From Eledone cirrhosa (lineage: Eukaryota), in the NCBI GenBank assembly GCA_964016885.1, contig OZ024743.1, positions 241,180,001 through 241,244,000 of the forward strand: a stretch of 64,000 nucleotides of DNA. Reading direction: 5' to 3'. Made by a program: the position numbers and the translations under genes. The notes under the pieces are model-generated. The model was not told where the DNA came from and searched no databases. It was given only the letters and a program-made list of their open reading frames with translations. Positions 26,330-62,375 of this stretch are shown here, piece after piece (position 1 is the stretch's first letter; every line of letters starts with the position of its first letter).

Positions 26330-26438
26330 TATTCCGATGATTTGATCAGACACACACACTGTATTTAAGGTCGAGTGACGCAATTTCGAGTGATTAGCGG
26401 CCTTTAGACTCACCTGATCAATGAAACAATTGTTAATA
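26330..26438 (+). ncRNA. Type I hammerhead ribozyme, CCGAUGA core, palindromic stem III
   Basis: tatt-CCGATGA-tttgatcag..ctgatcaat-GAAA-caattg-TT-aata. Confidence 0.7.
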
Positions 26439-27204
26439 CTTGAAATAAAACCCTTTTTGTACAGCCGACCAAGTTATTCTTCACTCTTTCACTACTATTA
26501 CTCCAAGAATAACCTGCATGGGAATTCTCGCAAACTCTCTACCTAACCAAGGAAACCTCTTGCTGAGTCAAACAACGCAGTACGTTAACATTATCCATAA
26601 TACAGAGTACTCACAACTTCTAACTGGGTTACCTAAAACGATAACTTTTTATCCCATATATATATATATACAAATTTAGTTTAACGAAGATATCCATATA
26701 TAATCCGTTGAGCTTCACCGATATCTACTTACTTGATGATTTTACAAAAATCGTATGTAAATACGAACGTATAACTCCGAAGAAGACACTATCCGGGAAT
26801 TATTAAACGGGTTAGTGTAGATACAATGTATAGACCTGAACTGTACAGTTTCCGTGTCACATGCTGCGTAAAACAGTTGCATCAGCAGATTTTAGTCACA
26901 GGAGTTTAGCAATATTTCCAATTATTATCGAACTAGGACTAACTTAATATTCGGGTGTTCAGTCCTAATCCAAACGGGAGACTTATCCGAGAGACTGATA
27001 AAGTGGAACTGGCAAACCATAATGATAATGAGAGCCGTGTCATACTGTAGCAGAATCACGTGCCCTTATAATGATTTAAAATTAAATGAGAAAGAACTCT
27101 AATTATGTGAGTACAAAAAAGATAAACAAGAAAGTATTCTATCTAACCTCGCTTATATATAGATCTCCCTACCATGGTATTAGAGACTAATTAACCTTTA
27201 ATTA

Positions 27205-28700
27205 AACCGTGTAACAAAAAAAAAATGTTTTTCTCTGTTCCTGGCTTGTAATCACATTTTTGTGTTGCTTATGTCCCAAATAAATAAAAAAGTGCTATTA
27301 AACAGTTAAAAGTTTGGGTTTGTAAAAATTCTAATCTATTGACTAGAATTATTTGTATGCTGGATTTTACGTTGTATGTCAGTTTAATTTGCTTGTGTTA
27401 AATGATTTTTTTAATATATGTTTCAGATTAAATTAAAATTATAAAATAAAGAGTAATACCTAAAGAAAATTAGAAAAGTCCAATAAAGTATAAAATTGTT
27501 AAAAAGTGGATTAAAGAGATTTATTGATACTGGATTTTCGCACCCTCAATAAAGGGTAAGTTGTGTTTTAACCATTCGTCTCTAGGATGAAGCAGTGGAA
27601 CTTGGTCAAGGAGGAAGTGCAGGTGACAAGTCAGAGAAGTCGACACGAACCTTTCTCAGGCTTTTACACTCTTAGGGATAGCCTCTGCTTCTGCCATGAC
27701 GTGCCTGGACTCTAAGGAGGCTTTATCAAATTCCAATGCTTCCTCTGCCTTTGGGACAGCAGAGCCACCTCTGACCACTACAACAGAAAGAACTGGGAGC
27801 AGCGAACAGAATTTGTAGTTGGGACCCGGAACGTCATGTGGGAGCCACTGGTTGATCCCAGGATTGTGCTCATGCCGCCACTGCACATTAAGTTGGGGTT
27901 GATGAAGGAGTTTATGAAGGCTCTCAACCAAGAATAAGCCGCTTTTAAGTACCTTCTTGAGTTCTTCCCCAAGTTATCTGGGGCCAAAATCAAAGGTGGA
28001 ATTTTTGTTGGACCTCAGATAAAGAAGGTGTTTGAGTCTACCGAATTCTCCAATAAGCTCAATAGGATTGAGAGAACAGCATGGAACTGTTTCAAGGCAG
28101 TTGTTAAGGGCTTCCTGGGCAACTACAGAGCTGAAAACTATCAGCAACTGGTGCAGGATCTGATAAAGGCTTTTGGCGCCATGGGATGCAGGATGTCGCT
28201 TAAACTCCATATGCAGGACGCTCACCTGGAAAAATTCAAGGACAAAATGGGCGCCTACTCAGAAGAACAAGGCGAACGATTCCAGCAAGATGTGAAAGCG
28301 ATAGAGCAGCGGTACCAGGGCCACTACAATGAAAAATTGATGGGGGACTATATCTGGGATCTAGTGCGGGAATGCGACCTGGACTACAACCGCAAATCCA
28401 GGAAATCCAGTCATTTCTGACGTGTATAACTTGCTTTATCAGTGTTATTTGTTTTGACTTGTTTGCTTTTGATAAGCTTGTGTAATAAAATAAATATATA
28501 TATACTCTGTTGATTTAATTATATGAACTGATAAATTTAAAAAAAATGTTTTTCCTTGAAAAATATGAAAATTTCGAAATATCAAACTCCTGACCACAAA
28601 CCCAAACTTCTGATTAAATAATAGTGTTTTTTTTATAATTGGATATAACAAACTATGAAATGACACTTAGAATCGGGGGAACAAAAAATGTTACACGGTG
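27205..28700 (+). mobile_element. Decayed CMC/Chapaev-type DNA transposon (internal deletion derivative)
   Basis: TIRs accgtgtaaca / tgttacacggtg. Transposase remnant at ~27800-28420: MPPLHIKLGLMKEFMKAL, AKIKGGIFVGPQI, SLKLHMQDAH, SEEQGERFQQD. Confidence 0.8.
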
Positions 28701-28719
28701 TTTATATATATATATATAT

Positions 28720-28892
28720 CTTTCACCGTATTTTTGACTAAATAAGTTTTAGTCTGATAATGGGGTTTAGAACGCTCAGATAAATGGAAAAAGATGAGTA
28801 TTATGTACGTCAATACTCATCTTTTTCCATTTATCTGAGGGTTCTAAACCCCATTATCAGACTAAAACTTCTTTAGTCAAAAACGGTGAAAG
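28720..28892. repeat. Near-perfect fold-back (~80-bp arms)
   Basis: tttcaccg..gatgagtatt | aatactcatc..cggtgaaa. Confidence 0.9.
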
Positions 28893-58946: not shown

Positions 58947-60153
58947 TATAAAACATGGCTAAATACTTGGAAAGTCTCATCAAGAAAAGCAGAAATAAAT
59001 TATATAAATATATACAAAGGAATTACAATAGCCATATGAAATATATAAAAAACTTTCAAGAAATATAGTTAGGTGTGTGTATATGTATGTATGTATATAC
59101 GCTCACAGATGTACATATGTATGTATGTACAAATGTGTACGTATAGTGAAAAAGTGTGCGTAAATATATGTGTTAGGGCAAGTGTATCTGTTTATCTGTA
59201 ACTGCAGACAGACATGATATATTTGTCTGTTTGGCAGGTACACAGAAAAACAGGGTATTAGATACATTATATGAAAATGAAGGCACGCGTATAAACACAC
59301 CCACACGCACGCGTACACTTATATGCGGAAGTAAAAGAGGTAAGGGAGTGTAATAATGAAAAGAAAGTATCATTCTCAATATATTTATAAAAATGGAACA
59401 ATAATTTAGAAGGAAAAAATTAAAGAAAAGAAGACAAACAAGGTACACGCGTACACACACACATATATCTACAAGAAACGTATATCTATAAGAAATATAT
59501 ATATATACACGCAAAAACGTGCAGACAAAAGCGTATGCAAGCACACATACACACACAGGATGGACATATATACGCATATACGCCTCGTCCCATGTATATC
59601 AAATCACGCGAACGCACGCGACTGTATACACACTCGCACACACACACACACGCAGAAATATACATGCTTATATACATACGCACACTTACACATCCATACA
59701 TTCGGTACGTACACACACACATACATACACTCACGCATATTGACCTGTTTACATGCACACACATAAAAATGAGGATGTAAAAAAAGAAAAAAACAAAACA
59801 AAAAACATAGATGTAAAAACACAGATATAAAGACACATATACATATACATATATATATATACACGCACCGCGCGCACATACGGAGGCGTTCGTGTACATA
59901 TATAGAAAGTATACACACATTAAGGCGCTCAGACACATAGATACAGGGGTGTAAAAAGCCTTGTGGATAAGTAAGTACAAATATAAAATTATAAGATTTG
60001 CTGCGAAATAACAAAAAATATCTTGAGTGGAAAACGCAAGTGACCTGTGTAATCAGTTAGTGAAGAAAAATAGGGAAGTAAAAAGTGGAAAGTGAAGATA
60101 TTAGTTAAGTGAATCGGAGAATAAAGGGGGGGGGGTTATTGGTGGATGTGAAG

Positions 60154-60700
60154 TAAAAATAAAAATAAAAATAAAAATAAAAATAAAAATAAAAATAAAA
60201 ATAAAAATAAAAATAAAAATAAAAATAAAAATAAAAATAAAAATAAAAATAAAAATAAAAATAAAAATAAAAATAAAAATAAAAATAAAAATAAAAATAA
60301 AAATAAAAAAAAATAAAAATAAAAATAAAAATAAAAATAAAAATAAAAATAAAAATAAAAAAAAAAATAAAAATATAAATAAAAATAAAAATAAAAATAA
60401 AAATAAAAATAAAAATAAAAAAATAAAAATAAAAATAAAAAAATAAAATTAAAAATAAAAATAAAAATAAAATTAAAATAAAAAAAAAATTAAAAAAAAA
60501 TAAAAAAAAAAGAAAAAAAAAAGAAAAAAAAAAAATTAAAAAAAAATAAAAAAAAATAAAAAAAAAAATAAAAAAAAAAAATAAAAAAAAAAAAAAAAAA
60601 AATAAAAATAAAAAAATAAAAATAAAAATAAAAATAAAAATAAAAATAAAATTAAAAATAAAAATAAAAATAAAAATAAAAATAAAAATGAAAATAAAAA
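60154..60700. repeat. (TAAAA/TAAAAA)n A-rich satellite
   Basis: Direct reading. Confidence 0.95.
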
Positions 60701-61832
60701 CTGGTGAAAATTTCTGTCTTTGTGTTCAGGCAGGTCTTTGGTGATTTAAGATTTTGCAAGATCCAATATTTTTCATTTATGCAGAGCGTGCATTTTCTTG
60801 TTCCTCTTGCATATTCTTTAGATTAGTTCAAAATTGACAAATCCAATTTATATTGGATACCTTGGTCTTTCAAATCCCATATTCTACTAGCCAGAGCTGT
60901 TGTAAATCTTTTTTTCTGGATGTCGAAAGGATGCGACATGTGAGTAATAACGCGTTTTGAATTTGTCTTGCGTCATACCCACATATCGTTCACTGGTGGC
61001 TGGATGGTTGTTGCTGATGGTTGTCACTTTAACCGCATATACAATGGCTTTGGTTTTGCATTTACTTTGTAATGGGCATTCACTTTTGATTCTACAGGAC
61101 CAATTTTGATGTTATCTAGGTGATTTTTTGTTTATGATATAGGATTTAATATGGGGACCGCAGGAGTAGCTAATTTTGACACAGTTTCTATTAAAGATCT
61201 TATAGTATCTATGTGTTCTAGGGAAATGTTTATCTAGGAGCTCTAGGAATTTTTTGCCTACATTAGTTTTAACTGCTAGAGAGTAGGGGGGTGTGAACCA
61301 GATTATTTTTCTTTTCCTGTTTTTATGTTTAATAGAGTTAGTATAGTTGGGTGTGTATTTAATCGGTTCGCTAAAACCGCTATTTTGGAGGGCTTTATTA
61401 TAGTAGGGGGATGCCTTATTAAAAATAGCTTCTGAGGAAGAGAGAGTGGAGATCCTACGGCTAATATTAGGTATAAGGTTTTTAAAAACTATAGGAGGAT
61501 GGTAAGTGCCTTTATTTATATATTTTAAGTTTTCATTAGGTTTACGGTATGGTTTATAAGAAGCAGTAGGCAAATCTAGGTTTATATCCAGGAAATCTAC
61601 ATTGGAAAGGTTAGTGTCAATAGTAATTTTAAGATTAAAACTACCGAAGGTTTTTATTAAGACTTTCCTTAATCTATCTAAGTTATGGCCTATGGTGGTA
61701 TGGGAAAGTATTAGACCATCGTCGCGATAAATAAATATATATATATATATATATATATATATATATATATATATATATATATATATATATATATATAGTT
61801 AAAAGAATAGAGGTGTAACACACAAGTTATTA

Positions 61833-62375
61833 TATATTGGTAAACGGAATAGAAAATGATGACAAATTGTTCACAGTGAAAAATAGTTTAATTAGGAATA
61901 AATGAGAATTAGTAATTGTATTGGTTAGTATTCAGTTTTGGTTTTAAGTTTTACCGGTTGCGCATTTCTAAATGCTTTTCAAAAATAATTTTGAGATAGA
62001 GCGTCCGTGACGTTTGCTCTGATCTGATTAGTTTTGGGAATTCTACCTGTTTTTATGTTAAAAACGTGGCTCCAACGCTATTAAAATTGGTTTTTGCAAC
62101 ACGAATTGGCGCAAAAACCAATTTTAATAGCGTTGGAGCCACTTTTTTAACATAAAAACAGGTAGAATTCCCAAAACTAATCAGATCAGAGCAAACATCA
62201 CAGACGCTCTATCTCAAAATTATTTTTGAAAAGCATTTAGAAATGCCCAACCGGTAAAACTTAAAGCCAAAACTGAATACTAACCAATACAATTACTAAT
62301 TCCCATTTATTCCTAATGAAACTATTTTTCACTGTGAACAATTTGTAAGCATTTTCTATTCCGTTTACCAATATA
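61833..62375. repeat. Long near-perfect palindrome (~265-bp arms) in (TA)n
   Basis: Arms are reverse-complementary around ~62100. Confidence 0.93.

Follow-up and report, generated by a model that had tools for sequence, protein, structure and literature searches.

Predicted type I hammerhead ribozymes of Penelope-like elements are scattered across the genome of Eledone cirrhosa and include a family with A at core position 4

We analysed hammerhead ribozyme motifs and the Penelope-like elements (PLEs) that carry them in a 64,000-nucleotide window of the Eledone cirrhosa genome (assembly GCA_964016885.1, contig OZ024743.1, positions 241,180,001 to 241,244,000 of the forward strand; coordinates below are those of this window, with + and - denoting the strand). 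The motifs are very probably type I hammerheads, as predicted from sequence, located at the 3' termini of some ten PLE families (seven of them with open reading frames (ORFs) of the Hydra clade) and of likely non-autonomous derivatives, present genome-wide and targeted to (TA)n. Hammerheads are scattered across the whole genome at roughly one per 9 kb, and their abundance is a genome-wide trait rather than that of a special locus. One family, denoted A, has A at core position 4 (A4), and is most likely a strongly attenuated ribozyme, the fold of which appears to be under selection. The association of a Hydra-clade element with a type I hammerhead is known; the quantity, the very long stem II arms and the fixed A4 are unusual, and the interest lies mostly in the A4 family and the census, not in the local cluster.

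To find hammerheads, we used a type I descriptor with relaxed rules (CNGANGA or UYGANAA as the core, GAAR, three stems and at most 160 nt in stem II; score of at least 15), and 20 local dinucleotide shuffles of 500-nt chunks served as window controls. We identified 13 matches, all beyond position 26,000 (26-63 kb), compared to a mean of 0.5 and a maximum of 2 in the shuffles. A preliminary description, made from the sequence alone, had listed 14 foldable type I hammerheads from at least eight unrelated contexts at PLE termini, with long stem II inserts and core variants expected to hide many of them from standard models. Eleven of the 14 pass the descriptor (C3 positions 26334+, 32668-, 37431+, 39664+, 40183+, 41864+, 47363-, 49543+, 51202-, 54476- and 58937-), three are degenerate, and one passing hammerhead (62602-) was absent from the list. 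The remaining match, 39890+, is probably due to chance because it has a UC..AA core and stems made of A and U only, leaving 12 credible sites, all with three stems around the core and an open stem I. The three decayed sites are still recognisable (35325-, with G at position 15.1 and a weak stem II; 45268+, which lost U16.1; and 46918+, with a stem III mismatch), and their families have intact members at other loci.

At the DNA level, the contexts are distinct, with the 14 listed sites falling into nine sequence families (ten when 62602- is counted), but seven of the families link to Hydra-clade ORFs. The core reads CUGANGA with GAAA and UH, or is a described variant of it (U4C or U3-A8), in families B, C, D, E, G1, G2 and I. 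The expected core variants (C4, U3-A8 and A4) and long arms (up to 114 nt) were recovered, as was the location at PLE termini, through descriptor matches combined with Hydra-clade ORF links. The motifs also proved to be hidden from standard models: a search of the window against Rfam (E <= 1) yielded 40 matches, none to a hammerhead model, and a rule that demands a canonical core and a spacer of 7-17 nt keeps 23 of the 131 matches in the genome sample described below. The motifs are predicted to be self-cutting.

The genome sample consisted of 100 evenly spaced 10-kb blocks from 15 contigs (1 Mb of the 3.0-Gb assembly), and contained 131 matches, compared to 4-9 in five shuffles and 11 in the reversed sequence. 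Nine matches in a satellite (L176) were false and were dropped from the genome estimate. The remaining 122 matches per Mb, less 7.4 chance matches, extrapolate to ~340,000 hammerheads genome-wide (bootstrap 253,000-442,000). The sampled matches form 41 clusters, 20 of which recur in at least two samples. As floor counts, exact patterns spanning both core boxes were found 60,130 times for family D, 26,946 for family J and 25,344 for family A (112,420 in total), and exact patterns of the 3' half only 17,351 times for family C and 2,549 for family B, with 0-3 occurrences of the reversed patterns. Together, the five patterns give 132,320 occurrences in 3.0 Gb, which matches the highest count in the text of the surveys, 126,247 in axolotl, whose genome is far larger (PMC7229834), although this comparison is not like for like because the axolotl count used a stricter descriptor. 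No earlier report of an A4 hammerhead, of such a census or of very long arms was found in the literature searched, as covered by its main text and a few supplements. A study by Lunse in 2017 reportedly arrived at ~150,000 hammerheads over all genomes.

The preliminary description had also considered the region a special dense field, which the comparison with the rest of the genome contradicts. The window contains 20 matches per 100 kb, compared to 33 in the right 100-kb flank, 4 in the left flank and a genome mean of 12-13, and in resampled 10-kb blocks the probability of at least 13 matches in 64 kb is 0.15. Were the window a dedicated ribozyme cluster with its own host function, the best indication would be the 36-kb stretch, which has 36 matches per 100 kb (~2.7 times the genome mean, P = 0.016), a value that is uncorrected for the post hoc choice of this stretch. 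We consider such a cluster extremely improbable, given that every family is a dispersed repeat, that the right flank is equally dense, that three of the sites are decayed, and that density tracks (TA)n. The number of matches per 10 kb correlates with that of (TA)n runs (rho = 0.59, n = 100 blocks), of which there are 84 per 10 kb in the 26-63 kb region vs. 14.5. Of 181 matches, 39% have a (TA)4 no more than 100 nt downstream, compared to 9% upstream and 10% at random places. The local excess of hammerheads tracks the density of (TA)n targets.

Comparison of genomic copies shows the stem covariation expected of a type I hammerhead in families B, C and D, a signal whose absence, together with that of cleavage in vitro, the preliminary description had named as a refutation. 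In family D (31 sequences), seven of the nine stem II pairs change on both sides and 95.6% of the cells are paired; in family B (26 sequences), four of 13 pairs are compensatory and 86.7% of the cells are paired; and in family C (27 sequences), three stem I pairs are compensatory and C3-G8 is replaced by U3-A8 in four of the 27. The covariation score was reached by none of the 500 shuffles in each of the three families, and slid registers scored lower. A palindromic stem III, which is not among the descriptor rules, is present in 82 of the 131 genome matches vs. 8 of 37 shuffled ones.

One carrier is a near-full-length family A element (51044..54670, -), in which an ORF with a reverse transcriptase (RT) and a GIY-YIG domain lies between two 354-bp pseudo-long terminal repeats (pseudo-LTRs; 54670-54318 and 51397-51044, 96.6% identical), each with an A4 hammerhead (54423-54496 and 51149-51222). 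Its coding sequence extends from the ATG at 54276 to 52148, with a frameshift within the first 25 codons. The open frame 54433-52151 (-) has 123 relatives at E <= 0.001 with 32-56% identity, among 8,000 candidates scored, and no Pfam match. It contains RLRWRAF (RWK-like) and SDKTGN (DKT for DKG), lacks CCHH, and ends in a C-terminal GIY-YIG; the CxCx5C linker is complete in the fragments starting at 49019 and 44595, and its first Cys is missing in this copy. By motif comparison with the alignment of Craig et al. (2021), the predicted protein is assigned to the Hydra clade, consistent with the single ORF in which RT precedes GIY-YIG and with the combination of (TA)n insertion and pseudo-LTRs.

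Five further Hydra-type fragments are present in the window. The four GIY-YIG-bearing copies that had been described as carrying a hammerhead in the 3' untranslated region (3' UTR) were confirmed, each with the motif downstream on the same strand, one of them degenerate: 36405-36491+ followed by 37431, 44595-44975+ by 45268 (the degenerate one), 49019-48498- by 47363, and 54433-52151- by 51202. The first belongs to a 5'-truncated family A element (36404..37685, +) that retains the last 29 GIY-YIG codons, the 3' UTR, the hammerhead (37411-37484) and the tail, and is 92.7% identical to 52238-50951. The second (44502..45481, +) combines a Hydra-clade GIY-YIG fragment with a 3' UTR and a family F hammerhead (45262-45344). 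The third is a 5'-truncated Hydra-clade element of family I (47088..49019, -; 94.5% identical to locus L142 over 1.9 kb); its hammerhead (47275-47368) has a U3-A8 core and a 6-bp stem III, and the hammerhead fold is the minimum free energy structure. A broken RT-thumb/GIY-YIG fragment of the Hydra clade (60700..61726, -) resembles Hydra-1_Obim of Craig et al. (2021) by eye, and shows no clear link to the hammerhead at 58937. Across the sampled loci, hammerheads of families A, C, D, G1, H and I lie at most 1.7 kb downstream of the end of a Hydra-type ORF on the same strand, and family F shows this link in the window only.

Other families occur as tandem units without ORFs, with periods of 502, 557, 592 and 657 bp, each unit with a type I hammerhead (family B, arrays derived from family F, and family J). 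One family B unit (49020..50028, +) has a 660-bp period, a 221-bp direct repeat and a hammerhead at 49538-49625; another family B hammerhead (39660..39736, +; canonical core, 50-nt arm) lies in a retrozyme-like unit (39336-40158), and tandem arrays of this family also occur at other genomic loci. The 3' UTR of the family F element matches the 557-bp tandem units of locus L108 at ~71%. Family B looks like a retrozyme-type repeat, and all three groups look like non-LTR retrozymes, those of families B and F apparently derived from pseudo-LTRs, an origin that Li et al. 2026 have proposed for such retrozymes (bioRxiv 10.64898/2026.07.22.740005).

In metagenome data, we found 77 loci with Hydra-type ORFs (L359-L435; 37-45% identity), of which 57 have a sense-strand hammerhead. 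The same descriptor matched 69 times in the sense vs. 3 times in the antisense orientation at these loci. Judged by these predicted ORFs, the Hydra clade is far broader than the few families described.

Arm length sets the present hammerheads apart from those of other organisms. In the genome sample, the core boxes are separated by more than 30 nt in 53% of the matches and by more than 50 nt in 35% (the nine false satellite matches included), whereas 68 of the 69 sense matches at Hydra loci of other organisms have an arm of 10-29 nt, and the single exception looks spurious. Some arms form long hairpins, those of 40183 (z = -6.5; family C hammerhead 40177..40321, +, with a canonical core and a 114-nt arm that forms one long hairpin) and 49543 (z = -5.1).

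Several results weigh against the interpretation of the motifs as selected PLE hammerheads. The arms at 41864 (z = -0.2) and 39664 (z = -1.2) fold no better than their shuffles. An ORF link was found across the sampled loci in 0 of 32 cases for family B, 0 of 6 for E, 0 of 2 for G2, 0 of 28 for J and 0 of 31 for K, and for F it was found in the window only. As for covariation, the pair-count shuffles ignore relatedness, the alignments were anchored on the core motifs, the number of pairs with a change on both sides is unexceptional for family B (equalled in 139 of 500 shuffles) and family C (112 of 500), and RNAalifold, applied to the alignments of B, C and D, returned only parts of the hammerhead fold.

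In family A, all four window copies have the core CAGAAGA. Exact matches to this family contain A4 in 25,344 cases vs. C, G or U in 1,061. All 25 sampled copies with an apparent U4 were fold-back junctions in which the U comes from the inverted arm, and only 2-3 of 28 in another sample had the native flank. In two contig runs checked at this position, no other letter reached a 5% share; one of the runs was thin and near-identical, and is not counted as a second species. A second A4 match (L171) was rejected, since it was just one copy, from a U4 family, that had mutated. When copies were anchored outside the ribozyme, A4 was present in 30 of 30, and anchoring on the 3' half identified it in all seven native-flanked copies of older subfamilies. 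Between the majority sequences of old and young copies, one of the 41 positions in stems and core differs (a change from G-C to G-U) vs. 5 of 13 positions in the bulge, loop II and N7 (Fisher p = 0.002); loop III and the 3' flank, used for sorting the subfamilies, were left out of this comparison. A4 was not found among the 69 sense matches at Hydra loci of other organisms, nor in the Hydra rows of file S2 of Craig et al. 2021 (PMC8557442).

Family A has neither U nor C at position 4, and accordingly we call it hammerhead-like on the basis of its other core letters and its stems. It differs from its neighbours in the window in that its stem III is full and its stem I is extended and has a bulge. 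This is the layout of monomeric hammerheads stabilised by tertiary contacts. The family might nevertheless be dead, with a U4 to A change in one master copy having hitch-hiked through a burst and the stem conservation reflecting short divergence. Identity among its young copies is 96-97%, the hammerhead fold is less stable by 2.1 kcal/mol than an alternative hairpin in which C3-A4 pairs with U11.1-G12, and a deep scan of another hammerhead found low activity of CUGA-turn mutants except for the C3G/G8C swap (PMC9901934). The latter two results, and the older-subfamily sample, which consists of only seven copies of mixed type, also count against an active family A. We consider a dead family A rather unlikely, given that older subfamilies, with altered loops, bulge, N7 and flanks, still have A4 and retain the stems and other core letters. 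Rather, the likeliest reading of family A is a ribozyme that is strongly attenuated and has a selected fold; on its own, it probably cleaves little or not at all, and useful cleavage is a serious possibility of somewhat less than even likelihood. Only tentatively, and with more doubt, do we suggest the combination that this genome exceeds all others on record in hammerhead density (~340,000, about one per 9 kb) and that family A is the first natural functional A4 hammerhead, slowed by the alternative hairpin and switched on by the stem I bulge or the protein of the element, most of the RNA being left uncut as a retrotransposition template.

Copies of family A very often fold back exactly at the core, a CTT-CAG-AAG quasi-palindrome, which yields head-to-head inverted pairs (L031-L060 and L271-L298) and marks a template-switch hot spot inside the ribozyme. 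The unit of satellite L176 is similar to the section of the family A 3' UTR that lies upstream of the ribozyme.

The distribution of the motifs could arise if the endonuclease of the element nicks (TA)n and the RT begins synthesis just downstream of the ribozyme, on RNA that is uncut or has been re-ligated, and in most cases ends it prematurely. Nearly all insertions would therefore keep the ribozyme and lose the ORF, such that ribozymes outnumber ORFs, and (TA)n-rich patches would collect nested insertions and hence appear as a local field. Cutting of tandem transcripts by the ribozymes would likely be slow, and would take place in dimers formed via the palindromic stem III or with the help of protein; it would set the 5' end (in family A, the predicted cut is 159 nt before the ATG) or release units that then circularise. 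Tolerance of long stem II arms is likely explained by the fact that minimal ribozymes of this type skip the contact between loops I and II. Each of the 30 family A copies anchored upstream of the ribozyme continues beyond the predicted cut; in 18, the end lies ~25 nt after it, and the other 12 reach into the tail. These ends match the pattern in an anole element studied by Frangieh 2024, where unprocessed RNA is the template, cleavage needs protein and there are two internal start sites (PMC11167929).

In the same anole Penelope element, catalytic mutants of the ribozyme left insertion in vitro unaffected and no reads ended at the cut site (PMC11167929). The folds might thus persist as a signal by which the reverse transcriptase of the element binds or is positioned, with cleavage vestigial in all families and the chemistry lost in family A. 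The proliferation of Naiad elements without canonical hammerheads, the expansion of family A to at least 25,344 copies with A4, and the extension of each sampled copy past the cut site would also be compatible with such a signal. However, nine of the ten window families retain U4 or C4, C3-G8 covaries with U3-A8, which mere binding does not require, and A4 is absent from the 69 sense matches of other organisms. We therefore regard a pure binding signal as improbable, and favour predicted self-cutting hammerheads.

The closest known system is that of the Hydra-clade PLEs of Craig et al. 2021 (PMC8557442), which share the RT with C-terminal GIY-YIG, the RWK-like and DKT motifs, (TA)n targeting, and a type I hammerhead near the 3' end with a U-U mismatch at the base of stem II and a short stem III. 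That study lists one octopus family and described the Hydra clade from few families; all Hydra rows of its file S2 have a CUGANGA core and a loop II of 3-10 nt (PMC8557442). In contrast, the elements described here have arms of up to 114 nt, C4, U3-A8 and A4 cores, 3' UTRs of ~1 kb and, for each family, copies that number in the tens of thousands. Minimal hammerheads of PLE pseudo-LTRs, in the text of Cervera and de la Pena 2014 (PMC4209133), are likewise mostly single motifs from truncated copies, with inverted pairs, a palindromic stem III that implies dimers, a longer helix II and a U3-A8 covariant; the counts given there are ~2,000-9,000 per genome, and the A4 variant does not appear in the text. 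The tandem units without ORFs, each with a type I hammerhead, are like non-LTR retrozymes (Cervera and de la Pena 2020, PMC7229834; Li et al. 2026), and a derivation of the latter from PLE pseudo-LTRs fits family F; the units here are longer than the circles of 170-400 nt described in these sources (PMC7229834; bioRxiv 10.64898/2026.07.22.740005). In the text of Perreault et al. 2011 (PMC3088659), U3-A8, U4C and the U10.1-U11.1 mismatch are natural and partly active variants, and these changes also occur here; U4A is not named in that text.

The function of hammerheads in PLEs was described as unclear and possibly parasitic by Craig et al. 2021 (PMC8557442). With at least 25,000 A4 copies and conserved stems, family A is a natural experiment on the need to cut RNA: cleavage by it would broaden the catalytic consensus, and a lack of cleavage would mean that the elements can do without cutting in vivo and that the fold serves some other purpose. 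Judging from the census, most ribozymes in genomes of this kind seem to escape standard models (as indicated by the empty Rfam search and the short-spacer rule). With a potential cut site about every 9 kb, host pre-mRNAs that have copies in their introns may be affected.

The remaining hammerheads of the window are those of family G2 (26330..26438, +; C4 core CCGAUGA, 82-nt stem II arm, palindromic stem III, homologues at three other loci), family G1 (41861..41980, +; C4 core, 95-nt arm), family A (32615..32688, -; A4 core, inside a 5'-truncated copy at 32463-33145), family E (58870..58947, -; canonical core, 38-nt arm, 3-nt loop III) and family D (62545..62610, -; canonical core), the latter being the site missed in the preliminary description. 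Degenerate hammerheads include one of family H (35291..35330, -; G at 15.1, weak stem II), a second of the same family that was likewise unlisted (26192..26228, site 26195+), and a second of family F at an inversion junction (46912..46994, +).

Two further families were observed outside the window. A tandem array 12-19 kb to the right (L072:7295-L073:2320) comprises 11 units of ~502 bp, ten of which pass as family J hammerheads, and appears as a retrozyme-like satellite. Family K (L211-L240) is GC-rich, with a canonical core, a 4-nt palindromic stem III and 74 exact matches.

The left part of the window (592-16870) is a nest of non-LTR retrotransposons with almost no (TA)n and no hammerhead, containing a 1004-aa RT ORF with RVT_1 (8556-11570+) and, on the minus strand, elements with AP-endonuclease and RT (11949-15406 and 3464-5907). 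A 160-aa frame at 27938-28420 (+) has no Pfam match, and may be a DNA-transposase fragment, which it resembles. At 62020-62190, a long, near-perfect inverted repeat forms a hairpin like that of a miniature inverted-repeat transposable element, with weak Rfam microRNA matches below threshold. A 190-bp repeat resembling a short interspersed nuclear element is present in four copies that are 85-90% alike (25394-25605, 41627-41839, 42009-42194 and 57525-57722).

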